DNA of 39,201 bases from Patescibacteria group bacterium (GTDB lineage: Bacteria > Patescibacteriota > Patescibacteriia > PEXW01): assembly GCA_041665345.1 (NCBI GenBank), contig JBAYJA010000003.1, positions 1 through 39,201 on the forward strand, given 5' to 3'. Shown in pieces: positions 1,776 to 31,097 of the stretch. The position numbers were made by a program, and so were the translations under genes. The notes beneath the pieces are model-generated. The model did no database searches, was not told where the DNA came from, and worked only from the letters and a program-made list of their open reading frames with translations. Within the stretch, counting starts at the first letter, position 1. The number at the start of each line of letters is the position of its first letter.

Positions 1776-1870
1776 CTTGTCATCCTGAGTCATACGAAGG
1801 ATCTTGCTTTTCGTATGAAACCAGCAGCAGGATCCTTCGTCGCAGACTCCTCAGGATGACAGAAAAGGAA
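1776..1870. repeat. imperfect palindromic ~95-bp structured element, copy 1
   Basis: Perfect 12-bp outer stem TGTCATCCTGAG(1779-1790)/CTCAGGATGACA(1850-1861) enclosing inner stems CGAAGGATC/GATCCTTCG and TCATACGA/TCGTATGA. Left arm nearly identical to the element at 16423-16520. Confidence 0.6.
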
Positions 1871-5537: not shown

Positions 5538-5894
5538 ATGAAACTCAACCGCAAACTTTTGGCAGGCGCCATCTCCGTCGGCGTCCTCGCCCTTCCCTTC
5601 GCTGCTTCAGCTATAACGATTGAAAACGTCGGTGGCACGCTGACCCTCGGTTCCGCTGATTTGAAGCAGACTGTCCTGAACATTATTACCTTTGTCTTGG
5701 GCCTCCTCGGGCTCATCGCCGTCATCATGATTCTCTACGGCGGCTTCATCTGGCTCACGGCCGGTGGCAACGAAGACAAAGTGTCTTCTGCAAAACGGAT
5801 TATCTCCTCAGCCATCGTTGGCTTGGTAGTCATCCTGATCTCCTGGGCAATCGTGAACTTCGTCGTGAAGAGCACGGTCAACGTTACCGCCTAG
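5538..5894 (+). CDS. TrbC/VirB2-like (T4SS-type) pilin-like protein, paralog 3
   Basis: 118 aa. Signal peptide; LLGLIAVIMILYGGFIWLTAGGNEDKVSSAKRIISSAIVGLVVILISW is clearly paralogous to 5095..5427. SD AAGGGGGTG precedes the ATG. Confidence 0.65.
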   Translation: MKLNRKLLAGAISVGVLALPFAASAITIENVGGTLTLGSADLKQTVLNIITFVLGLLGLIAVIMILYGGFIWLTAGGNEDKVSSAKRIISSAIVGLVVILISWAIVNFVVKSTVNVTA

Positions 5895-6030: not shown

Positions 6031-6114
6031 CCATACCCTCTACCCATACCTTCCTACTATACTCGCTGCCACACCCAAACCTTCTACCTCTCCAATACGG
6101 TATACTACCCGCAT
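6031..6114 (+). promoter_or_regulatory. conserved C-rich upstream element, copy A (shared promoter/leader module abutting an ATG with no SD)
   Basis: ...CCTCTACCCATACC...ATACTCGCTGCCACACCCAAACCTTCTACCTCTCCAATACGGTATACTACCCGCAT|ATG. Near-identical element in inverted orientation at 14943-15035 and a shorter copy at 31035-31097. Contains TATACT (-10-like) 8 nt before the ATG. Confidence 0.6.
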
Positions 6115-13352: not shown

Positions 13353-14942
13353 TTACTCTGGATTCTGCCAAGAGTAAATCCACACCTCAGCATCTTCGTA
13401 CGCCAGTTCCACACCCGGCGTCACGCGAACATTCTCGTACATCTCCCGATGATCTTTTTCCACAAAAATCCACTTCGTATTAAAGAGGTCAAAGGCTTCA
13501 GCCAGGTTGTCCTTTTTCTGGCCCAGGGTGGTCTGCGCCCAGGCCCAGTAGCGGGTGACATCTTGGCGGTAGAGGAAGGTTGGATCCAGACCGGCGATGT
13601 ACGCGTTTACCGTGTTGTAGTAGAACAGCACGGGAAAATCATCCCAGTCACTGTGGAAGACCACGTCGCCAGGTTTGGAATGCTCTGCCATCCAGGTGGC
13701 CGAGGCTTGAAAGTGAGTAGCATTTACTCCCGAAGAAAGGTTCTGCACATTGGTGCGCTGATCCCGCGCAACCACGTATGGCACGCTGACCACAATGTAC
13801 AGCGCGAGTAGCCCCACCACAATTTTTCGACGCTGCCACTGCTGCCACACGCTCTCCCAGATGTGTCGCCAATCGCTGGTTTTCAGCACATCACCCAGCG
13901 TCACTGCTGCAGCCAAAGCAATGAACGGCACGGCATACTCCACGTACCGCCTAGACTTTAAGGTGACAACGCTGAAGAGCAGTGCGAGGAGCACCAGGGT
14001 CCACCCTTTGGCCGTCGTTCGTCGCAGGTGCACAATGGCCAGCACCAGCGCCAGTAGGAACGGAATGATGACCACCACATTATTCCCAATGAACTCGGTG
14101 AAGCCGTACGGATACCACTCCCCGCCCACGCCAATGACATTTCGGTAGTTCACCACGCCAATTTGGATAACCTGCTCCCACAGAAAATGAAAAGTGTTTG
14201 GGAAAAAAGGGTTTGCCACCATGCCCACCCCGGCGCCAGCCAAAACGCAGCCAAAGACCTGCAGCGGTCGGTAGTGCAGAAATCCCTGCCAGGTCCACCA
14301 GGGTTTCCTCCCCGCTTCCGCTGCTTCCCGTGCCCAATGCCGTACCAGGTCAACGACTGCGTACGCAAGCAATGACAGCCCGGCTGCCGCAATGAGCACC
14401 AGAAAACCGCCGTAGAGCAAGACGAAGAACCACGCCAGAAAAAATGTCAGCCACCGCTTCCCCCGGAAGATGCACCACAGACCAATGAGGAGTGTGGCCA
14501 GAGACAAGCTGGGCGCTTTGGCCAAACTCATCCGAAAGGTGAACGGCGTTGCGGCCAATAGCACTGCTGCCCAAATCCAGGCGTGGCGTACCCCAAAACT
14601 GCGAACAAACCACACCGCAACTGTCAGTAAGAGCGATGCAAAAACTACGGTCGCCAGTTTGATACCAGCCAGTGGATCCATGAGCCGCACAAAGGGAACC
14701 AGCGCAACATGATACAACCAGTGCTGGTCAATGTAGTGCTCGCCCAGCGTGGTGAAGGGCAACCAGGGCAATTCTCGCACCGCACCCTGCTGGCTGGTCA
14801 GCACCGCGATCCGCGCATGGTAGAAGGAGTCAGGATCGGCAAAGACCGCGCTCCGTTGCATCAGGAAAAAAGCAACGAAGCTCACCACAAACGTACCTAG
14901 GAGCATGAGGAGCGTCGTGTGGCTCCGCCAGTGAATAGTCAT
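13353..14942 (-). CDS. polytopic membrane protein, ArnT/PMT-like GT-C glycosyltransferase candidate
   Basis: 530 aa from ATG 14942 (the ORF-track start 15122 includes the noncoding conserved element). First loop FADPDSFYHARIA resembles the PDE.RYAEI loop motif of ArnT/PMT_2-type GT-C enzymes. About 12 TM helices, C-terminal soluble domain. Confidence 0.5.
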   Translation of the reverse strand: MTIHWRSHTTLLMLLGTFVVSFVAFFLMQRSAVFADPDSFYHARIAVLTSQQGAVRELPWLPFTTLGEHYIDQHWLYHVALVPFVRLMDPLAGIKLATVVFASLLLTVAVWFVRSFGVRHAWIWAAVLLAATPFTFRMSLAKAPSLSLATLLIGLWCIFRGKRWLTFFLAWFFVLLYGGFLVLIAAAGLSLLAYAVVDLVRHWAREAAEAGRKPWWTWQGFLHYRPLQVFGCVLAGAGVGMVANPFFPNTFHFLWEQVIQIGVVNYRNVIGVGGEWYPYGFTEFIGNNVVVIIPFLLALVLAIVHLRRTTAKGWTLVLLALLFSVVTLKSRRYVEYAVPFIALAAAVTLGDVLKTSDWRHIWESVWQQWQRRKIVVGLLALYIVVSVPYVVARDQRTNVQNLSSGVNATHFQASATWMAEHSKPGDVVFHSDWDDFPVLFYYNTVNAYIAGLDPTFLYRQDVTRYWAWAQTTLGQKKDNLAEAFDLFNTKWIFVEKDHREMYENVRVTPGVELAYEDAEVWIYSWQNPE

Positions 14943-15035
14943 GTAGGAAGTATACCGTATTGGAGGGGTGGAGGGTTTGGGTGTGGCAGCGAGTATGGTT
15001 AGAGGGTGGCGGTTTAGGATGGGTAGAGGTACGAG
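14943..15035 (-). promoter_or_regulatory. conserved C-rich upstream element, copy B (inverted relative to copy A)
   Basis: Minus-strand reading: ...CCTCTACCCATCC...CCATACTCGCTGCCACACCCAAACCCTCCACCCCTCCAATACGGTATACTTCCTAC|ATG. About 85% identical to copy A over about 70 nt; abuts ATG 14942 with no SD. Confidence 0.6.
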
Positions 15036-15321: not shown

Positions 15322-16380
15322 TTACCCGAGCTTTTTCTTAAAGTAATGCACCCAGTTAATTGTGGCAGGGTTAATATGATTGCGCAAGCCCAAGGCCAAG
15401 GTCAACGCTCCACCAAATGCCACTGCCGCAACTGCTTGCGAAAACCGTGTCTGCCCCGGCACTCGGAAGCTGGCAACTTTCGCAGCGTTTTTCAGCACAA
15501 CCTCGCTCGTCAACCGGAAACGCTTCTGAATGCGAGGATGGTACAGCCCTGAAGTGAGGAAGAGAAACGTCGTTTTCCGGGTATTCACCTTGGGATTGGC
15601 CAGGCCTTCCATGAGGTGGTGATTCAATTCCGGAATGGCAAAGTAGGTAGCCAGAGCTTTAGCGGTTTCATTCAGTTGATTCGCCAGGACATGCGCCGAA
15701 CCAAGAGTGTGCTCTGCACCTATCACAAAGATTTGCCGGTTGAGCAACGTGGCGGTTAAGGTAGCCACAGGATTGCCTAGCTTCCGCAAATCAAGCTGCT
15801 TTGCATACCGTTCAAGGTCACGAATGGCTTGTTCAACTACGGGTAAAGGCAAAGTGATGAGCCCGGATTTGGAAAGCAGACCCAGCAAACCAAATATCCC
15901 ATACCCTAAGCCAAGCCTGGGTTGATCAGACGGGTTTTCTCTGGGGGTAAAGATGTACGCTGGGATATTCCCACGCTTTGCCGCGCGTCCCAACGCCCCG
16001 CCCGTGGCTTGAATTAGGATCTTCGCACCTCGCTGCTGGGCGACCTTCAGTGCGGCCAGGGTTTCTTCCGTCGTACCAGAGTAGCTGGAGAGGACAACCA
16101 ACGTCCGCTTCCCTACCCAAGCAGGCAAATGGTAATCATTCACAATCACAATTGGCACGCGCAAATACTCAGCGCAAGCTGTCTGCAGCATGTGCGCGCC
16201 CAAAGCGCTGCCACCCATGGCGGCAACCACAATCGCATCAACTTTTCCCTTCAATGAGGAGATTTTCAAGCGACGTACTTCTATCCACGCCTGCCTTGCT
16301 TGTGCGCCAAAACGCAGTACTGACCCATGGACATCCTGGGGATCGTACTGCTGCAGCAGTCGAGTGAAAGAGACTGGCAT
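15322..16380 (-). CDS. SIS-domain phosphoglucose/phosphomannose isomerase (bifunctional PGI/PMI-like)
   Basis: 352 aa; two SIS-like Rossmann segments (VVAAMGGSALGAHML and LVVLSSYSGTTEET), size and layout typical of archaeal/bacterial bifunctional PGI/PMI. Confidence 0.6.
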   Translation of the reverse strand: MPVSFTRLLQQYDPQDVHGSVLRFGAQARQAWIEVRRLKISSLKGKVDAIVVAAMGGSALGAHMLQTACAEYLRVPIVIVNDYHLPAWVGKRTLVVLSSYSGTTEETLAALKVAQQRGAKILIQATGGALGRAAKRGNIPAYIFTPRENPSDQPRLGLGYGIFGLLGLLSKSGLITLPLPVVEQAIRDLERYAKQLDLRKLGNPVATLTATLLNRQIFVIGAEHTLGSAHVLANQLNETAKALATYFAIPELNHHLMEGLANPKVNTRKTTFLFLTSGLYHPRIQKRFRLTSEVVLKNAAKVASFRVPGQTRFSQAVAAVAFGGALTLALGLRNHINPATINWVHYFKKKLG

Positions 16381-16422
16381 ATCCGTACCCTAGCGCGTGG
16401 CGGAGAAGCTGTAAAGTCGCGA

Positions 16423-16520
16423 AGGCCTTTTTCTGTCATCCTGAATCAGATGAAGGATCCCCAGACTATGGATAAACTTCGGAGATTCTTCGTTAGACTC
16501 AGAATGACAATGAGGAGGAG
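16423..16520. repeat. imperfect palindromic ~95-bp structured element, copy 2
   Basis: GGCCTTTTTCTGTCATCCTGAATCAGATGAAGGATCC...CTTCGTTAGACTCAGAATGACAATGAGGAGG. Left arm is about 85-90% identical to 1771-1804; outer stem TGTCATCCTGAATC/GACTCAGAATGACA (12/14 paired). Confidence 0.6.
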
Positions 16521-16647
16521 TTAGGTAGAAGAGGGCGGGATCCCGCCTCAGTGACGGGACGTAACTATCCCCTTCACATAATGGTGTAAAACGGACAACT
16601 ACGTTAAAATAAAGCCGTCATTCATTAGCTAAAGCACGCTTGCATCT

Positions 16648-19600
16648 ATGGAAATCAAGTCAAAATTTCACTTTTTTCGTCAGAACAACTTCACCTACCT
16701 GGACAGCGCCGCCACAACCCAAGTACCGGATGCGGTGACGCGTGTGGTGGAGCAGTCTTTGCAGTACAAAGGCAACCCGAATCGTAGTGCGCACGCCGTA
16801 GCGGAAAAAAATGAACAGGCGTTGCAAGCCGCCCGGGAGAATATTGCCGGCTTCATTGGCGCCACGGCAGAGGAACTCATCTTCACAAATAACACTACGG
16901 ACAGTATCAACCTTGCGGTGGATGGTATTGCCGACCATGTAAAGCCTGGTGACGAAATTGTCATCGCCGTGTCTGAACATCACTCCAACATGCTGCCCTA
17001 CACCAAGCTGGTAAAGCGTGGGGCGAAAATCCGCATCGTAGGCATCAAAGACGGCGTGGTCAATCCAAACGATGTGCAGAAAGCGCTTACGCCCAAAACC
17101 CGTATCGTGGCCGTGGGACACTGCTCCAATGTCCTCGGGAACATCAACGACGTGGTAGCTATTGGCAAACTCGTTAAAAACCACGACAAGAAAATCTTCT
17201 TCATTGTGGATGGCGCGCAAGCCGTGGCGCACATCCCAGTAGACGTCCAGGCAATGCAGGCGGACTTCTACGCGTTCTCGGGCCACAAAATGTACGGGCC
17301 AGATGGCGTAGGTGGATTGTACATTGCCCGAAAAATCCACCACCTGCTCACTCCGACACGTATGGGTGGCGGCACCGTGCAGAATGTGGCCATCACCTTT
17401 GATAAAACTGGTGATATCATCTCCCCTGACTACTTCCCGTCGCTCATCACGTTGGAAGGTGGCACGCCAAACCTGTCCAACATTCTCGGCCTTTCTCGCG
17501 CCGTCAACTTCATTCGTTCTATTGGCTTCCCAGATATTCAGGCACACGAACGCGGGCTGCTAAAACGTTTGCTGGATGGGTTGGCGACAATTCCTGGGGT
17601 GCAGGTCTTTGGTCCCACCGACCTCCAACAAAAAATTGGCGTCCTCTCTTTTGGTTTGCAAGACACGAACACCAAAGAACTCGGCGAACACCTTGGTCGC
17701 CAAAAGATCTGCATTCGCTACGGCGCACATTGTGCCTTCCCGCTAGCGGAAAAGCTGGGCCAAGAAACCCTGCGCATTAGTCTGGGCGTGTACAACACCG
17801 AAGAAGACATTGACCACGTGCTCAACGAAATGCGATTCTTCTTCGATAAGAAACAAGGGCGCATTACCAACCCCAACCTGGAGCCCCTGCGCAACAAGCT
17901 CTACTACCGCAGCACCCATGTGGTGAATTCCTATGCTGCCCTGGCCGAAAAGCTGCAGCAATCCCTCTACGGCCCACAGGATACGGAAATTATTGTCATG
18001 GGTGGCCACTTCTTGGGCATACCAGACATGCAGGAAAACCGCTTCTGGCCCAGCATTGCAACCATGGTACCCGAGCGCCTGCACGGCCTCATGGATGAGT
18101 TTGGCATGACGAGCTTTCCGCTTTTCACGTGGCGCTTGGCTTGTCGGACGGTTGCGGATTTGAAAGCGCACGGATACCAAGCAAAACTGGCAATTATTGC
18201 CAATGACACAACGGGAATGAATGAACTTCGTAACTCTGAAGCCAACACAACAAAGAAAACCGCTGAGCAATACCGAACTGAGTTACTAGATACTTTTCAA
18301 GAAGACGGTCATTTACCAAATCGCTATAGTGAAATTCTCAAAGAGCACGGATTGCATAAGCGAGATATTCTCAAGAATGGTGACAAATTCGTATTTCAAG
18401 AAACCTTACTCCGAGCCAACTTCAAAAAATTTGTTGATGGTAATAAAAATTTCTTTGATGGCATCATTGCCTACACAAAAAAGGCAGAGGAGAATATCGA
18501 CTTATCAATTAAACTCCTCGATAATCAGGAAATTGCTTCCTGCACGTTTAATACATTTCAATCAAAAACTGGTGGGAAGTTTTGCATTGTTGAATTGTGT
18601 CAATTTATTGCCGAACTCTTTGGTAAACCAGAACTGATTACATTCCCCTATGTATCACAGCGCGTACTGAAACCAAAGGTGACAGCAAATCACAAGATTC
18701 TTTTTGCAATCACGCCCGCGATGTGCGACAACGCTGTGACGCGATCCGCGGAACTCTACACCAAGCTTTTCCTCCAGGAGCAGAGTAAAGGATCATTTAA
18801 ATTCTTCAACTTGCCCCTAGGCCCAAATGCTGAGCGCAGCTTAGCTATGGGCGCAGAACTCAAGTATGTCTCAGACAAAGACAATCTTGAGGTACTTGAT
18901 ATTGAGCATGAGCCCGCATTTCCAGATCTCTGGCGCTTGGCTGAGTACAAGCTCATCTACAATGCTCCTGCCTATGTAACTGAAATGACCGCGCTTTTTG
19001 CGAAGCTGGGCCTCACCAAGAAATCCGCACTGCTGGATACCTGTGTGGGTCCAGGCTTCTTTGCCACTGAGCTGTTGCGGCAAGGTTACAATCTGCATAC
19101 CGCAGACAAGAGTGAAACCATGATGGCACCATTCCGCGCAACCCTGAAAGAGCTTGGTATCAACCACCAGCCCACAGTGAGCACGTGGCTTGATTTGCCA
19201 AAACACTTCGAGGCAAATTCCATGGATATGCTCTTCAACCGTGGGAACACCTTCATCTACGCGGCAGGCGGCTGGCATGAGCGAATCACCGTGGACCGAG
19301 AAAAATCTTTGGCGAAATATTTAGAGACGTTACGCGTCTACTACAGCCTTCTCAAGCCAGGTGGCTACCTCTACGTAGATAAATTCCGTGATGCAGAAAT
19401 CCCAGATAAAAAAGTTGTTGCTCGGCTGTACATTCAGGAGCCTGCGCAGCAAAAAGACGTAGTCTTCTACGTCGAACGCAAACCAGAAGATCACATTCGC
19501 TTTGCGCAAATGCTCTTGCGCGACACCCAAGGCAAAGAGACTGGATTACCAAACATGGCCTATGACTTGAGCGTAGAAGAAATGGAAATGTTGCTACAGA

Positions 19601-19677
19601 AAGCTGGGTTCAAGAACGTCCAACAACTCAAGCTCGCACAAGAAAAACACTTCGTCGTCTGGCTAGCCCAGAAATAG
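16648..19677 (+). CDS. 1009-aa multidomain protein: N-terminal SufS-like cysteine desulfurase (class V PLP fold), unknown central module, C-terminal GNMT-like class I SAM methyltransferase
   Basis: aa 1-~400: YLDSAATTQ, PLP-Lys motif FSGHKMYGPDGVGGLY, catalytic-Cys loop RYGAHCAFPL (cf. SufS RTGHHCAQP). aa ~730-1009: LLDTCVGPGFFA (motif I), GNTFIYAAGGW, LLKPGGYLYVDKFRD, resembling glycine/sarcosine N-methyltransferases (NSFxH, LLVIDHRNYD). aa ~400-730 unrecognised. 18230-18660 is an A/T-rich in-frame segment. Confidence 0.8.
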   Translation: MEIKSKFHFFRQNNFTYLDSAATTQVPDAVTRVVEQSLQYKGNPNRSAHAVAEKNEQALQAARENIAGFIGATAEELIFTNNTTDSINLAVDGIADHVKPGDEIVIAVSEHHSNMLPYTKLVKRGAKIRIVGIKDGVVNPNDVQKALTPKTRIVAVGHCSNVLGNINDVVAIGKLVKNHDKKIFFIVDGAQAVAHIPVDVQAMQADFYAFSGHKMYGPDGVGGLYIARKIHHLLTPTRMGGGTVQNVAITFDKTGDIISPDYFPSLITLEGGTPNLSNILGLSRAVNFIRSIGFPDIQAHERGLLKRLLDGLATIPGVQVFGPTDLQQKIGVLSFGLQDTNTKELGEHLGRQKICIRYGAHCAFPLAEKLGQETLRISLGVYNTEEDIDHVLNEMRFFFDKKQGRITNPNLEPLRNKLYYRSTHVVNSYAALAEKLQQSLYGPQDTEIIVMGGHFLGIPDMQENRFWPSIATMVPERLHGLMDEFGMTSFPLFTWRLACRTVADLKAHGYQAKLAIIANDTTGMNELRNSEANTTKKTAEQYRTELLDTFQEDGHLPNRYSEILKEHGLHKRDILKNGDKFVFQETLLRANFKKFVDGNKNFFDGIIAYTKKAEENIDLSIKLLDNQEIASCTFNTFQSKTGGKFCIVELCQFIAELFGKPELITFPYVSQRVLKPKVTANHKILFAITPAMCDNAVTRSAELYTKLFLQEQSKGSFKFFNLPLGPNAERSLAMGAELKYVSDKDNLEVLDIEHEPAFPDLWRLAEYKLIYNAPAYVTEMTALFAKLGLTKKSALLDTCVGPGFFATELLRQGYNLHTADKSETMMAPFRATLKELGINHQPTVSTWLDLPKHFEANSMDMLFNRGNTFIYAAGGWHERITVDREKSLAKYLETLRVYYSLLKPGGYLYVDKFRDAEIPDKKVVARLYIQEPAQQKDVVFYVERKPEDHIRFAQMLLRDTQGKETGLPNMAYDLSVEEMEMLLQKAGFKNVQQLKLAQEKHFVVWLAQK

Positions 19678-19685
19678 ACCCAACC

Positions 19686-20531
19686 ATGATGTCTGAAAAA
19701 AATCACGCGCCAAATCAGGACGCGGATAAGGAAAAAACCGAATACAAGACATTCCGCCTAGATCACGAGCCCACGTTTGCGGAGCTGTGGGAGCTGTGCG
19801 TGAATGAGCTGCTCTATAATGCGCCAAAGCATTACGATGAAATTGAGGCACTTTGGGAGCGACAAGGAATAACCAAAGAATCCAAAATTATTGATGTTGC
19901 TGCTGGGAGTGGCTTCCCCGCACTTGGTTTGCTGCAACGAGGGTGGAACATAGACTCCGCTGATGGCTTTACGGATGAGGTGGAACTCTTCAACAAACGT
20001 GCGGAAGAGGCGGGGTTGCCCGAACGCTGCGCCCAAGTGCTATGGGCGGATTTGCTCAAACAGTACCCAAAAGAAGCCTACGACTTCTTACTATGCAGAG
20101 GTAATTCATTCATATACGCGCCGGGGGGTTGGAATGCTGAAGCGCCGATAACCCCGCAGGCTGCACTGGAAGCCTACACCAACACAGCAAAAAACTTCTA
20201 CGATTTGCTCAAACCCGGTGGGCAGATGTACATCGATAAATTCAAAGATACCGAAATCTCGCATAAAGAAACCGTTGCGCGCTTGCAAATTGGTAACGCG
20301 ACCCCAGAAGACCTCATTTTCTGGACCCAACGCTTTTCGGAGCAGCACATTCGCCGTGCGTCCATGATTCGCCGCAAACAGGATGGTACCGAAACTGGCA
20401 CACCGAACATTTCGTATGACCTTACCTTTCCAGAAATGGAAAAGGCATTAACGACGGCTGGTTTTTCCAAGATTGAACAGCAGCAGCTTGAAACAGAAAA
20501 AGTTTTCAACACCTGGATTGCAACAAAGTAA
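19686..20531 (+). CDS. GNMT-like class I SAM-dependent methyltransferase, standalone paralog of the C-terminal domain of the upstream 1009-aa protein
   Basis: 281 aa, co-linear with aa ~730-1009 of the upstream protein: DHEPTFAELWEL/EHEPAFPDLWRL, IDVAAGSGFPA/LDTCVGPGFFA, CRGNSFIYAPGGW/NRGNTFIYAAGGW, LLKPGGQMYIDKFKDTEI/LLKPGGYLYVDKFRDAEI, C-terminal ETEKVFNTWIATK/AQEKHFVVWLAQK. Confidence 0.75.
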   Translation: MMSEKNHAPNQDADKEKTEYKTFRLDHEPTFAELWELCVNELLYNAPKHYDEIEALWERQGITKESKIIDVAAGSGFPALGLLQRGWNIDSADGFTDEVELFNKRAEEAGLPERCAQVLWADLLKQYPKEAYDFLLCRGNSFIYAPGGWNAEAPITPQAALEAYTNTAKNFYDLLKPGGQMYIDKFKDTEISHKETVARLQIGNATPEDLIFWTQRFSEQHIRRASMIRRKQDGTETGTPNISYDLTFPEMEKALTTAGFSKIEQQQLETEKVFNTWIATK

Positions 20532-20565
20532 GTTCGCGGATTGAACGCAGGACGCACTTTTTCAC

Positions 20566-26785: not shown

Positions 26786-27835
26786 ATGAAGAAGCTCCGG
26801 ATTGCGCAGCTGGTTCCGTTTGAAGAAACTGTCCCTCCCACCAAGTACGGCGGCACAGAGCTCGTCGCAGCAAACCTCTGCGATGGGTTGGTGAAACAAG
26901 GACATGACGTCACCCTCTTCTCCGTGGGCGGTTCCAAGACCAAGGCCAAGTTGGTGAAGATTTTTCCCGGCTCACTTCGCGCCATGACTGGCACCGACGT
27001 GAAGCAACGAGAATCTTTGAAGTACATGGGCGTGGGCAAGGTGCTCACCGCGGTGGCGGCTGGAAAATTCGACATTGTCCACAACCACATTGGCTGGCGC
27101 GTGCTGCCCTTCACCGGCATGATCCCCCACCCTGTGGTCACCACGCTCCACGGACCCTTGGACATTGGCTACCAGCAAATGGTGTACAAGCCCTACAGCC
27201 ACACCCCGTTCGTTTCCATATCCAACAACCAGCGCAAACCCCTGAAGCTCAACTACGCGGCCACCGTGTACAACGGTATTCATGTGGAAAAGTTTGCCTA
27301 CCTGGAGAAGAAGGATGACTACCTGGCGTTTTTGGGCCGCATGAGCCCAGAGAAAGGTCCGGTGCAGGCCATCCAGGTGGCAAGGAAAACTAAACGTCGT
27401 TTGATAATGGCCGCGAAAGTGGATGCGGTGGATGTGAAGTTCTTCACCGAGAAGGTGAAACCGCTCATTGACGGCAAGCAAATCAAATTCTTGGGTGAAG
27501 TGGATCACGTTGGAAAATCCAAACTCCTGTCCCGCGCTGCAGGCTTGCTGGCGCTCATCCAGTGGGAAGAGCCCTTTGGCCTCTTCATGGCAGAGGCTAA
27601 TGCCTGCGGCACGCCGGTCATTGCCATGGCACGGGGAGCCGCGCCTGAGGTGATTGCCCACAAGCAGACTGGCTTCCTGGTGCACTCCAATGACGAAGCG
27701 GCGCGCATGGTGAGCAAGCTGGGAACAATTAGACCCGCGGCCTGCCGAAAACGAGCGGAGCAGTACTTTTCCGTGGAAGCAATGGTCGCTGGGTACCTGG
27801 CGGTGTACCAAAAGCTCATCCGGCAGTGGCGGTAA
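26786..27835 (+). CDS. GT4 glycosyltransferase (small, ~350 aa), paralog a
   Basis: N-terminal KKLRIAQLVPFEETVPPTKYGGTELVAANL..GH.VTLF; C-terminal GT-B motif WEEPFGLFMAEANACGTPVIA (E-x7-E). Paralogous to 28827..29885 and 29882..30922. Confidence 0.8.
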   Translation: MKKLRIAQLVPFEETVPPTKYGGTELVAANLCDGLVKQGHDVTLFSVGGSKTKAKLVKIFPGSLRAMTGTDVKQRESLKYMGVGKVLTAVAAGKFDIVHNHIGWRVLPFTGMIPHPVVTTLHGPLDIGYQQMVYKPYSHTPFVSISNNQRKPLKLNYAATVYNGIHVEKFAYLEKKDDYLAFLGRMSPEKGPVQAIQVARKTKRRLIMAAKVDAVDVKFFTEKVKPLIDGKQIKFLGEVDHVGKSKLLSRAAGLLALIQWEEPFGLFMAEANACGTPVIAMARGAAPEVIAHKQTGFLVHSNDEAARMVSKLGTIRPAACRKRAEQYFSVEAMVAGYLAVYQKLIRQWR

Positions 27836-28830
27836 ATCCACATATGACTCGGACCGCCCTCCTGAAGCACGTTCGCGGCCTCCTGCAGAAACGCGGGTTA
27901 ACCCCAGATGCCGATGTGAAAGAAATGCTCAACCACCAGCGACGGTTTTTTCGTACGCGCTGCGTGGATGCAAAGGGCCGGGCCTACACCTTCAAGGTGT
28001 ACCTCATGCGCGTGCCAACCACGCGGCACGACTTCCAGCACGAAATTGCTTTCTACCACTTCACGGCCAAAGCGCGGCTGAACCAATTTCCTCGCTGGGT
28101 GGAAGGAAATCGAACCGGAGCACACCCCTGGATTCTCTACCACTACATACCCGGCGAGCTCTTCACGGCGTACCTCCGCAAACATCGGAACCACGTTCCA
28201 CCAAAGCTCATCGCCAACCTCAGCCACATGCTGGCACACTACGGCCAGCTGCCCATTCCTCTGGCTACACGCCGGCTCCTCCACCTCCAAGCACACCGCG
28301 CCAGTGACTTTACTGCCCGCTTTCGAACCTACGCTCGGGGGAAAAACGGCCAGACACTTCGGACGTACCTCAGTGATGCTGAGCTTGAAGTTGCTGCACG
28401 CATTGTGGCGTTCCACCAGCTCGAACGGCATACCCGGCACCAATTAGGCATTAGCCACGGCGACTTAAGTACAAATAACCTCCTCGTGGATCAGGGACGC
28501 TTTGCGGTACTAGACTGGGAGCATATTCAAATTGCCTCCCCGGCGTACGACGTGGCGGAACTCTGGGTCAAAGAATTCAGCCGCGCACCCTGGCGGAACC
28601 GGCTGGTAAAAAAAGTTGCTGACCTGCAGCCAGACCACGCTGCCTTTAGCGCGCTCTTCGCCATTGAGGTACTACTTTTCTGCCTCCGGGATATTCTCCT
28701 CCACCACCGCATCCTCTCGGAGCTGCACCACACCAAGAATAAAGTGATTGTCCGTAAACTCTTACGCTACTACGTTCGCACATTCCGCGCCGGGCTGCAT
28801 GGCTTTTCCTCGCTTATGAAAAATGCATGA
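27826..28830 (+). CDS. APH/choline-kinase-family phosphotransferase (putative sugar or small-molecule kinase)
   Basis: Brenner catalytic motif ISHGDLSTNNLLVD and downstream LDWEH (DxE metal-binding). 334 aa; overlaps the upstream GT4 stop by 10 nt and the downstream GT4 start by 4 nt. Confidence 0.65.
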   Translation: MAVNPHMTRTALLKHVRGLLQKRGLTPDADVKEMLNHQRRFFRTRCVDAKGRAYTFKVYLMRVPTTRHDFQHEIAFYHFTAKARLNQFPRWVEGNRTGAHPWILYHYIPGELFTAYLRKHRNHVPPKLIANLSHMLAHYGQLPIPLATRRLLHLQAHRASDFTARFRTYARGKNGQTLRTYLSDAELEVAARIVAFHQLERHTRHQLGISHGDLSTNNLLVDQGRFAVLDWEHIQIASPAYDVAELWVKEFSRAPWRNRLVKKVADLQPDHAAFSALFAIEVLLFCLRDILLHHRILSELHHTKNKVIVRKLLRYYVRTFRAGLHGFSSLMKNA

Positions 28831-29885
28831 ACAAATCTCGCAGACTCCGCATTGCCCAAGTTGCTCCCCTGGCTGAACGCGTTCCACCCCGCAAGTACGG
28901 CGGTACCGAATTGGTCATTGCAAATTTGGTGCAAGGCTTGGTCAAGCGCGGACACAGCGTGACACTCTTCGCGCGGTCCGATTCCGACACGCCTGCAAAG
29001 CTGGTTCCCGCCTACCACCCTGACCCGCGCGCGACCAACCGCAGCCGTATTCGGGGCTACAGCGTACCAGCCTTTTGGCAAATGCTGCAGTACGGCCATG
29101 TCTTTGAGCACGCCAACGATTTTGACATCATCCACATGCACGTGGGATCGAGTAGCTTCCCTTACACCCGGCTGGTACAAACGCCGTGCGTGCTCACGCT
29201 GCATGGCCGTTTGAACACGAGTGAAGCGAAAATTGTGCACCAAGCCTACCCAGAAATTCCCCTGGTCTCCATTTCTAACAACCAGCGTGAACCGCTCCCC
29301 AAACTGAACTTCATTCGCACCGTGTACAATGGCATTGACGTTGCCAAATTCCGCTACAACGACCGCCCCAAAAAGTACCTAGCATTCCTGGGTCGGATGA
29401 GCCCAGAGAAGGGCCCAGTAGAAGCAATGCAGGCGGCAAAGAAAGCGGGCTTACCTTTGGTCATGGCCGCAAAAGTGGACACCGTGGATGAAGCGTACTT
29501 CATGAAGAAAGTCCGACCGTTCATTGATGGGAAGCGGGTGATCTTCCTTGGTGAAGTAAACCATGCAAAAAAGGTGGATCTCCTCCGTAATGCCTTGGGT
29601 TTGCTGGCGCTCATCCAGTGGGAAGAACCTTTTGGCTTGTTCATGACCGAAGCCATGGCCTGCGGCACACCAGTGATTGCCACCCGCCGGGGCGCCGTGC
29701 CAGAAATTGTGGTGGATGGGAAAACGGGGTTCATTGTTGCCTCCGTTGCCGGGGCAGCTAAGGCAATTGCCAAGCTGCAGACCATTGATCGTGCGGCCTG
29801 CCGGGCACGAGTGGAAAAAGGCTTCTCCCTTGATACAATGGTAGATGGGTACCTCGCGGCCTATGCCAAACTCCTGAAAAAATGA
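28827..29885 (+). CDS. GT4 glycosyltransferase (small), paralog b
   Basis: RLRIAQVAPLAERVPPRKYGGTELVIANL...GHSVTLF; WEEPFGLFMTEAMACGTPVIA; closely related to 26786..27835 (same blocks throughout). Confidence 0.8.
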   Translation: MNKSRRLRIAQVAPLAERVPPRKYGGTELVIANLVQGLVKRGHSVTLFARSDSDTPAKLVPAYHPDPRATNRSRIRGYSVPAFWQMLQYGHVFEHANDFDIIHMHVGSSSFPYTRLVQTPCVLTLHGRLNTSEAKIVHQAYPEIPLVSISNNQREPLPKLNFIRTVYNGIDVAKFRYNDRPKKYLAFLGRMSPEKGPVEAMQAAKKAGLPLVMAAKVDTVDEAYFMKKVRPFIDGKRVIFLGEVNHAKKVDLLRNALGLLALIQWEEPFGLFMTEAMACGTPVIATRRGAVPEIVVDGKTGFIVASVAGAAKAIAKLQTIDRAACRARVEKGFSLDTMVDGYLAAYAKLLKK

Positions 29886-30922
29886 AGAAACCAAAGATAG
29901 CTATCCTCGCCTCCAACCTCTTCCCCATTCCGCCGCAGCGTACGGCCGCGGCTGAGCTTATTGTCTCCCAAATTACCGAAGGGCTTGTGAAACGTGGCTT
30001 TCCGGTGACGCTCTACGCTGCCGGTGATACCAAAACCAAAGCGCGCTTGGTTGCCGCCACCCCCCGCGCCTCCATCCGTGAGCCCAAGATTGGCATGGAA
30101 AACCACAAGGCCTACGAGCTCATCCAAACCAGCAATGCCTACCGAGATGCCACGCGCTGGGGCGCCAACGTCCTGCTCTCCCACGTGCCCATGATGAGCG
30201 CGCACTTCTCCCCGTTCGCCCCTTTTCCATCCACTGCGCTCCTGCACAGTCCGCCAACTTTCACGGACCAAGCGGTCATGCGAACCTACAGCAAGACGCA
30301 GAGCTACATTGCCATTTCCAAAGCGCAGCGCAACTTGGCGCCTGGCGCACGTTTCATTCAGACCATTCAGCACGGCGTGGATCTACACAAACTCCCCTTC
30401 CACCCCAAGCCCGGCACGTACCTGGCCTTCCTGGGTCGCATCCGCAACTACAAAGGCGTACATGAGGCTATTACCGTGGCGCATCGGCTCAACCTACCTT
30501 TACGCATTGCCGGCCCCATTGGCGACCCCGTGTACTTTGCCCAACAAGTGAAGCCCTACCTCAACAGCCGCATCCGGTACATTGGTGAAATTACCCACCG
30601 AGAGAAAGGCGCCTTCTTGGGCAATGCCCTGGCCACACTCTTCCCCATTTCGTGGGATGAACCCTTTGGCTTGGTGCTCATTGAATCATTGGCCGTGGGC
30701 ACACCCGTGGTGGCATTCAAGCGTGGCTCGGTCCCAGAAATTCTCAAGGATGGGAAAACTGGTTTCATTGTCAAAAATACTGCAGCCATGGCGCAAGCAG
30801 TCCGGCACATCGACGCAATTGACCGAGCGGTCTGCCGCAAAGACATGGAAAAACGTTTCAGCCTTGACCGCATGGTGGATGACTATGCTGCTTTACTTAC
30901 ACGTCTAGCCGCCGGTAAGTAG
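29882..30922 (+). CDS. GT4 glycosyltransferase (small), paralog c (more divergent)
   Basis: KIAILASNLFPIPPQRTAAAELIVSQITEGLVKRGFPVTLYA; WDEPFGLVLIESLAVGTPVVA; start overlaps the upstream stop (ATGA). Confidence 0.75.
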   Translation: MKKPKIAILASNLFPIPPQRTAAAELIVSQITEGLVKRGFPVTLYAAGDTKTKARLVAATPRASIREPKIGMENHKAYELIQTSNAYRDATRWGANVLLSHVPMMSAHFSPFAPFPSTALLHSPPTFTDQAVMRTYSKTQSYIAISKAQRNLAPGARFIQTIQHGVDLHKLPFHPKPGTYLAFLGRIRNYKGVHEAITVAHRLNLPLRIAGPIGDPVYFAQQVKPYLNSRIRYIGEITHREKGAFLGNALATLFPISWDEPFGLVLIESLAVGTPVVAFKRGSVPEILKDGKTGFIVKNTAAMAQAVRHIDAIDRAVCRKDMEKRFSLDRMVDDYAALLTRLAAGK

Positions 30923-31034: not shown

Positions 31035-31097
31035 CCATCCAACCATACCTTTCAACGATACTCGCTGCCACAACCAAACCCTCACCCCTTTGCAACT
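31035..31097 (+). promoter_or_regulatory. conserved C-rich upstream element, copy C (core only)
   Basis: CCATCCAACCATACCTTTCAACGATACTCGCTGCCACAACCAAACCCTCACCCCTTTGCAACT|ATG. Shares the ATACTCGCTGCCACA(C/A)CCAAACC(C/T)TC(T/C/A)ACC core with copies A and B but lacks the CCAATACGGTATACT proximal module; no SD. Confidence 0.5.

Follow-up and report, generated by a model that had tools for sequence, protein, structure and literature searches.

The first 39,201 nucleotides of contig JBAYJA010000003.1 (assembly GCA_041665345.1), from a Patescibacteria group bacterium, carry two copies of a palindromic element of about 100 nt. The whole stretch was analysed and is called the window below. Copy 1 (1765-1870) lies between a zinc alcohol dehydrogenase (ADH) gene (680-1729) and an NTP-transferase/GalU gene. 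Copy 2 (16421-16520) is located in the divergent region between a bacterial PGI/SIS gene (15322-16380, minus strand) and the gene of a 1009-aa aminotransferase-methyltransferase fusion (16648-19677), at the left edge of a lineage-specific segment of 4.16 kb. The closest GalU and PGI relatives carry Patescibacteria or Parcubacteria names, and the locus has three type IV secretion system (T4SS)-pilin genes. The elements are ordinary repeats, resembling repetitive extragenic palindromes (REPs) and miniature inverted-repeat transposable elements (MITEs); they are neither a novel RNA nor a terminator.

Organization of the two palindromic elements

Alignment of both strands of both copies indicates that each element is built of two inverted units, TGTCAT(C/T)CTGA-loop-GAAG(G/A)ATC, with their TGTC tags pointing outward, which gives four units in the window. 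A preliminary description of this DNA had reported a duplicated imperfect palindrome in the two intergenic regions named above. Both sites and their gene context were recovered, and only the start of copy 1 had to be displaced, from 1776 to 1765, about 11 nt upstream. A common lead-in, GAGGTCTTTTTCT and GAAGGCCTTTTTCT, differing by a 1-nt indel, opens the copies at 1765 and 16421 and is followed by the core TGTCATCCTGA(G/A)TCA.A.GAAGGATC at 1778-1803 and 16434-16459, as had been quoted. Sequence comparison of the copies also revealed a common left flank on the plus strand, ..GTAAAG..AGG.CTTTTTCT (1750-1777 in copy 1, 16407-16433 in copy 2), and in this genome the duplicated sequence reaches about 25-30 nt left of the tag. 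A chance origin of this two-copy repeat is excluded: the 26-nt core, with at most three mismatches, gives three matches in the window for 0.00 expected (100 shuffles), and GTCATYCTGA gives five for 0.16 expected. The fifth GTCATYCTGA match, at 5829 inside a pilin gene, is due to chance.

In copy 1, two hairpin units form a tag-outward (“HH”) dimer, extended on the outside by a T-run and an A-run. Its left unit TGTCATCCTGAGTCATACGAAGGATCTT (1778-1805, plus strand) can be divided into a TGTC tag, a 5-bp stem ATCCT/AGGAT, a tandem GA/GA, the mini-hairpin GTCATAC and a C right after the stem. A spacer of 23 nt (1806-1828) separates it from the right unit TGTCATCCTGAGGAGTCTGCGACGAAGGATCCT (1829-1861, minus-strand reading), which is a long-loop variant, GGAG-N-GCGAC, that recurs in other genomes. 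Copy 2 is also a tag-outward dimer, with a left unit TGTCATCCTGAATCAGATGAAGGATCCC (16434-16461, plus strand), a 20-nt spacer (16462-16481) and a right unit TGTCATTCTGAGTCTAACGAAGAATCTC (16482-16509, minus-strand reading).

The 12-bp outer stem of copy 1 is perfect, TGTCATCCTGAG at 1778-1789 pairing with 1850-1861, as originally noted. Folded as RNA, this copy reaches -52.6 kcal/mol (z = -8.3 against shuffles), and copy 2 is weaker, with -33.5 kcal/mol (z = -2.8). The differences between the arms are compensatory. The right unit of copy 2 has the stem ATTCT/AGAAT, a C-G to T-A change relative to the ATCCT/AGGAT of the other three arms, and the closing pair of the mini-hairpin is A-T in the left unit of copy 2 and G-C in that of copy 1. 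Within each arm of copy 2 (ATTCT..AGAAT on the right, ATCCT..AGGAT on the left) 5/5 pairs are formed, and the mismatches fall between the arms. Because these changes keep the pairing of each arm perfect but break the inter-arm pairing of copy 2, they point to the single arm as the conserved entity, and not to the 100-nt inter-arm hairpin. The compensatory evolution proposed at first is therefore real, but it preserves the small hairpin of each arm. The inner make-up of each element, two inverted units that are each a hairpin, had been overlooked.

Both copies are lineage-specific. In the closest relative (L246, GalU 97% identical), the ADH-galU spacer has 98 nt, copy 1 is absent and the downstream galU promoter is conserved. 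In L333, whose PGI is 90% identical, the PGI gene adjoins yebC and copy 2 is absent, 197 nt standing in place of 4162 nt of the window (16404-20565). Unit search and covariance model found no match in 91 kb of related genomes of the Candidate Phyla Radiation (CPR).

The 16404-20565 segment encodes the fusion protein (1009 aa, class-V aminotransferase and methyltransferase) and a 281-aa open reading frame (ORF), with a GC content of 0.49 compared with 0.52-0.54 in its flanks. It is probably a recent gene gain, with copy 2 at its left edge; a search of the right edge for a second repeat gave only a 10-nt chance match. Two Logan contigs of other sequencing runs (SRR6484324 and SRR18595301), L002 and L003, match the window without difference, and the first base of each is exactly 1779, the G of GTCAT in the left arm of copy 1. 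This suggests a branch of the assembly graph at the element boundary, resulting from a presence/absence allele or from other copies.

The hairpin unit in other genomes

The unit has a consensus of ~28 nt, 5'-T-GTC | AT-Y-C-T | G-A | variable mini-hairpin | G-A | A-G-R-A-T | C-3'. Its hairpin, formed within the same strand, has a 5-bp stem starting with A-T, followed by two G·A pairs and a mini-hairpin of 2 bp and 3 nt, with an unpaired GTC tag 5' and a C 3' of the stem. All four window arms have the TGTC tag and the stem ATYCT/AGRAT with 5/5 pairs, then C. In the hairpins that flank nuclease genes (see below), the T of the tag is present in 97% and GTC in about 100%. The CUGA...GAA motif and the tandem G·A recall a hammerhead or a k-turn; judged from the sequence, both candidates were rejected, as CUGAN is not followed by GA and a 3-nt bulge is missing.

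Base pairing of the stem is supported by covariation. The unbiased test uses the three stem positions that the search pattern leaves free, since the regular expression already demanded most pairs and inflates the pair counts from the gene-flanking hairpins. Among the matches listed, 146 of 160 instances are fully Watson-Crick at these positions, in eight stem variants, for a chance level of about 3% by simple arithmetic. The inner part covaries too (GCGNAGC, ACGNAGT, CCGNAGG) and can lengthen into larger hairpins, and the G-A steps on both sides of the mini-hairpin are invariant. G-U/G-T pairs are present at some stem positions.

The pattern GTCATYCTGA-N(4-14)-GAAGRATC was found at 120 loci or more in the viral contigs of IMG/VR. 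Among the matches listed there, GTCATTCTGAGCGAAGCGAAGAATC and GTCATCCTGAGCGCAGCGAAGGATC are the commonest forms, and conservation outside the unit is limited to a T before GTCAT and TC after ATC. GTDB was scanned with one genome per species, the centre of the unit being fixed and three stem positions free. The phyla among the matches listed are Acidobacteriota, Chloroflexota, Bacteroidota, Planctomycetota, Nitrospirota, Gemmatimonadota, Verrucomicrobiota, Omnitrophota, Bacillota and Pseudomonadota, with Saccharibacteria, Gracilibacteria and Uhrbacteria as CPR lineages and Hymenobacter and Mucilaginibacter isolates as cultured carriers. One hairpin-bearing contig (L209) is labelled as a Nanoarchaeota metagenome-assembled genome (MAG), which is either a genuine archaeal occurrence or a binning error.

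In about 2 Mb of hit loci, paired units are tag-outward (convergent) in 77 cases, tag-inward (divergent) in 17 and in tandem in 33. The tag-outward dimers have spacers of 4-95 nt across other genomes, often with complementary ends, and those of distant phyla resemble the window copies; dimers within one genome have a common spacer sequence and occur in both orientations. The idea that short-loop and long-loop arms are distinct left and right ends of a gene-carrying element was rejected, both ends being mostly short-loop. No direct repeat was found around either window copy, nor around the dimers inspected in other genomes. The check for target-site duplications recommended in the preliminary description thus came out negative.

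Single units are mostly found at the 3' sides of genes, 35 between convergent compared with 9 between divergent genes, and their orientation relative to neighbouring co-directional genes is weakly biased (45 versus 28). These gene-context statistics depend on a crude longest-ORF caller. In two phage contigs, units are situated in-frame within terminase and portal ORFs (L033, 12102-13742, minus strand; L052, 7918-9504, minus strand), where they add about 35-60 aa that close homologues do not have. The unit yields recurrent peptides such as ..LRFAQHD.. and ..SLRSE, which we take to be spurious. Tandem arrays with one hairpin per repeat in a single orientation were also observed, with 105-nt repeats in a Bacteroidaceae MAG (L140, 3500-4300) and repeats of about 153 nt in a viral contig (L087, 1741-2476).

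Relation to Ssn nucleases and tagged repeats

Genes linked to the unit were searched by clustering 1103 ORFs within 2.5 kb of units at about 240 loci, with a cut-off of 90 aa, close to the ~95-aa length of the GIY-YIG proteins described here. No recurrent transposase, either of the DDE type or a REP-associated tyrosine transposase (RAYT), was present among these ORFs, which yielded phage structural and housekeeping families only. A ~95-aa single-domain GIY-YIG gene adjoins units in a Gracilibacteria MAG (L157), in Hymenobacter glaciei (L243, 4146-4421) and in an alphaproteobacterial MAG (L160). A metagenome scan with three or four GIY-YIG proteins as queries gave 80 loci, 51 of which have a unit within 400 nt of the GIY-YIG gene and 28 on both sides. 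The density of units is 2.13/kb near the gene and 0.13/kb farther off, a 16-fold enrichment, and reversed sequences gave 0 matches. The usual order is unit(+), gene, unit(-), and the whole set is sometimes contained within about 350 nt.

The protein of the alphaproteobacterial MAG is 49% identical (E 5e-14) to a GIY-YIG ORF of N. gonorrhoeae that is flanked by eight canonical copies of the NTS repeat. The CPR protein (L157) is 40% identical (E 2e-20) to the NTS-flanked gonococcal ORF, with a probability of 99.5% by profile comparison. On the strength of this similarity to the gonococcal ORF, whose meningococcal homologue is the nuclease SsnA, the unit-linked proteins are considered true relatives of SsnA. 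A covariance model, CM R1, was built solely from 58 gene-flanking hairpins and applied to the window. It recovers exactly four arms: the left (34.0 bits, E 4e-6) and right (30.6 bits, E 3e-5) units of copy 1, and the left (28.6 bits, E 8e-5) and right (37.1 bits, E 8e-7) units of copy 2, the latter with the top score. The next match has an E-value of 1.4. The four window arms belong to the gene-flanking hairpin family.

According to the text of Chenal et al. (Nat Commun 2025, PMC11893778), the meningococcal SsnA is a 94-aa GIY-YIG nuclease that binds and cuts the NTS CGTCATTCCCGCGMAVGCGGGAATCYRG. It acts on single-stranded DNA only, on one strand only, and not on RNA. Binding depends critically on the C that follows the palindrome, and cutting on the three bases in front of it; ssnA genes are typically bracketed by Ssn-related motifs (SRM). 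These determinants, the 3' C and the GTC tag, are kept in all four window arms. The NTS/dRS3 repeats and SRM have the same layout as our unit, TGTCATYCTGAGCGNAGCGAAGRATCTC: the palindrome opens with AT, is preceded by an unpaired (C/T)GTC tag and is followed by C. They also share the architecture of a small GIY-YIG gene between hairpins, with associated proteins 40-49% identical. The stem centre is different, two G·A mismatches and a variable mini-hairpin occupying the place of the continuous G-C pairs of the NTS, and true NTS copies reach only about 14-15 bits with CM R1. Unlike the NTS/SRM brackets, the window copies have no adjacent nuclease gene; judging by their arrangement, they are the hairpin(+)/hairpin(-) bracket minus the gene, a form comparable to MITEs and REPINs.

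The unit also resembles the CGTC-tagged REPs, a class that, as described by Di Nocera, De Gregorio & Rocco (BMC Genomics 2013, PMC3733652), includes the Neisseria dRS3 and the Rickettsia palindromic elements RPE-4 and RPE-6. In that description, the tag is CGTC, or TGTC in many repeats, and stems nearly always start with complementary A-T. The dimers are mostly tag-outward, with many heterodimers among them, and their spacers, of 20-100 bp, frequently end in complementary sequences. Some copies are intragenic, and the class has no linked transposase. The tag and the A-T stem start are found in the four arms, and the excess of tag-outward pairs in the 77 versus 17 dimers. The class is described with a stem of 8-9 bp, a loop of 4-5 nt and a CCA tail; the unit has nine stem positions, counting the two G·A, a loop of 3 nt or a longer hairpin, and a C-T-(C/T) tail. 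The comparison with this class, which comprises families CGTC-1 to CGTC-4, was made on the class description, and so was that with RPE-4 and RPE-6. Like the Rickettsia elements, units occur in-frame in genes, here those of phage terminase and portal, whereas both window copies are intergenic.

In REPINs, which are REP doublets mobilised by RAYTs (Bertels & Rainey 2011, PMC3116915), two inverted hairpin units of ~25 nt and a spacer likewise make up a single long hairpin; it is the doublet that replicates, and one nuclease-type gene is bracketed by repeats. However, the tag is TGTC here and not GTAG, and the linked gene encodes a GIY-YIG nuclease and not a HUH/Y1 transposase. Each REPIN sequence is restricted to its lineage and inherited vertically, whereas the unit is nearly uniform across phyla and phages. 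A classical MITE, derived from a DDE transposon, would share the inverted ends of the window elements, but a target-site duplication was found at neither copy. We class the window elements as new members of the NTS/SRM and “CGTC/TGTC-tagged REP” kind. A literature search by unit sequence returned unrelated primers only, and one for MITE and Patescibacteria nothing relevant. This lineage and sequence variant are not described in the text of Di Nocera et al. or of Chenal et al., and may already appear in a family figure or in the supplementary data.

Interpretation and significance

Taken together, we consider it probable, at roughly 75%, that the elements are non-coding and consist of a ~28-nt tagged DNA hairpin, paired in inverted orientation with no gene in between, of the NTS/dRS3 and CGTC/TGTC-REP class, whose unit brackets Ssn-family genes in other genomes. 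By analogy with SsnA, the arms would fold once the DNA becomes single-stranded, as in replication or DNA uptake, the left one in the top strand and the right one in the bottom strand. An Ssn nuclease acting in trans, from a gene located elsewhere, would bind the hairpin by reading the C after the stem, and would nick a few nucleotides 5' of the tag, the cut depending on GTC, as in the Neisseria enzyme (PMC11893778). The likely results would be the spread or maintenance of gene-less dimers, and local effects on recombination or on incoming DNA. It is possible, though doubtful at present, that the tandem-G·A mini-hairpin unit constitutes a separate Ssn/hairpin branch, much wider than the NTS-type motifs, which reaches CPR and phages and spreads as gene-less inverted dimers.

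Several observations weigh against the main interpretation. The sequence covered, consisting of the window with 8 kb upstream and 10 kb downstream (~58 kb of the 176-kb ENA contig), holds only the two elements, with no further copies in the window flanks, and tblastn gave no match to a GIY-YIG/Ssn gene in the window, L001 or L004, ~58 kb in total. The search for further copies proposed in the preliminary description was therefore fruitless near the window and rewarding in other genomes, where the unit is widespread. The published SRM pattern, HGTCWYN(0-2)YYVSBRHN(0-5)WNVSBRGN(0-2)RNCYNB, matches the canonical NTS but none of the four window arms and none of the 436 collected instances, because the G·A pairs and the mini-hairpin replace the G-C-rich stem centre. 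A single arm folds as DNA with only about -2 kcal/mol, compared with -8.9 for the NTS, in nearest-neighbour models that give no credit to sheared G·A pairs or GNA loops, so the stability of the arm may be understated. The biochemistry of SsnA was established with the Neisseria NTS, and its extension to the G·A variant is by analogy. GIY-YIG enzymes are hydrolytic nucleases, and the copying mechanism of the repeats is hypothetical even in the text of Chenal et al. (PMC11893778). The differences between the relatives and the window exceed the element, with about 170 nt for copy 1 and 4.16 kb for copy 2, and neither boundary is exactly that of the palindrome. No target-site duplication was seen that would indicate how the copies arrived.

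In a genome without an Ssn nuclease, both copies would be inert relics. A reading of the elements as such relics, decaying hitch-hikers of the same repeat family in a reduced Patescibacteria genome, perhaps brought in with horizontally acquired DNA, seems rather unlikely to us. It would agree with the two copies only and the lack of an Ssn gene within 58 kb, and with the state of copy 2, which is degraded as a long hairpin (z = -2.8), has mini-hairpins that deviate from the common GCGNAGC form and abuts the 4.16-kb lower-GC segment absent from L333. However, each of the four arms retains its tag, a fully paired stem (5/5), the two G·A pairs and the C 3' of the stem, and the differences among the arms are compensatory and not random; with ~58 kb of the genome covered, an Ssn gene may lie elsewhere. 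The elements could also act in cis as structured RNA in the neighbouring mRNAs, their long or small hairpins stabilizing, processing or insulating transcripts, as proposed for REPs. The strong RNA fold of copy 1, the G-U/G-T pairs in stems and the preference of single units for gene 3' sides (35 convergent versus 9 divergent) are consistent with such a role, and the text of Di Nocera et al. (PMC3733652) argues that many tagged REPs act as RNA. We nevertheless regard it as improbable, since Rfam gave nothing at the gathering threshold (permissive E-values brought up only generic miRNA-hairpin matches, far below threshold), the orientation relative to co-directional genes is weakly biased at 45 versus 28, copy 2 is located in a divergent promoter region, units are found inside phage coding genes, and the nuclease family to which the unit is closely linked ignores RNA in Neisseria, as reported in the text of PMC11893778. 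The preliminary description had left a MITE/REP-like repeat and a structured RNA side by side. The former is borne out by the multi-phylum family of tagged hairpins, the tag-outward dimers and the absence in relatives, and the discrete RNA, with no Rfam match and a weak orientation bias, is not; SsnA, the only protein partner characterised for this repeat class, acts on single-stranded DNA and not on RNA.

An intrinsic, possibly bidirectional, transcription terminator is very improbable. A long GC-containing hairpin does lie downstream of the ADH gene, but on both strands the hairpin comes after the T-run and before the A-run, a terminator scan found no terminator-like site and no T tail after either element on either strand, and copy 2 lies between divergent gene starts; a simple terminator role had already been judged unfit, and rightly so. 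It is hardly credible that the palindromes are double-stranded operators for a dimeric transcription factor controlling galU and the fusion gene. They are palindromic and upstream of two genes of sugar or cell-envelope metabolism, but the same unit stands beside unrelated genes in many phyla and phages, the free covariation of the stem fits base pairing and not base readout by a protein, and the galU promoter is conserved in relatives that have no element. The preferred reading remains that of tagged DNA hairpins arranged as gene-less inverted pairs.

Some other features of the window were observed. Between the conserved galU promoter (TATAAT, 1945-1950) and the galU start, whose true position is probably near 1997, the region 1952-1997 contains a small hairpin, TCTCCGTGCATGGAGG then GTTTTTCTTC, in which GGAGG pairs with TCTCC. 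It is conserved in L246 and is possibly a leader structure; GalU has 291 aa in relatives, compared with 303 aa for the window ORF from 1961. A second repeat of about 50-78 nt, ..ATACTCGCTGCCACACCCAAACC.TC..CTCCAATACGGTATACT, occurs at 6036-6114 (plus strand), 14941-15018 (minus strand) and 31035-31088 (plus strand). It lies just upstream of the likely ATG, and oriented with the gene, of a DUF2079 membrane protein, a 589-aa ORF and a GalT-like gene, and could represent a promoter, leader or regulator site common to the three genes. The region 27300-30800 contains three paralogous glycosyltransferase genes with stretches 68-77% identical, spaced by 2056 and 1034 nt, a similarity that results from ordinary gene duplication.

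For annotation, both palindromes look like candidate RNAs and are not to be labelled as small RNAs, terminators or small ORFs. The 25-28-nt unit is very common in genomes and MAGs, and its link to Ssn-type nucleases provides a testable partner. As the SRM pattern misses the G·A variant, surveys based on it under-count Ssn/hairpin pairs, and this variant is a source of additional enzyme-and-site pairs for the tools on single-stranded DNA that PMC11893778 proposes. If the unit does constitute a separate Ssn/hairpin branch, a hydrolytic GIY-YIG nuclease would drive a REPIN-like mobile repeat, and the dimers might mark the junctions of newly acquired gene cassettes, as at copy 2.

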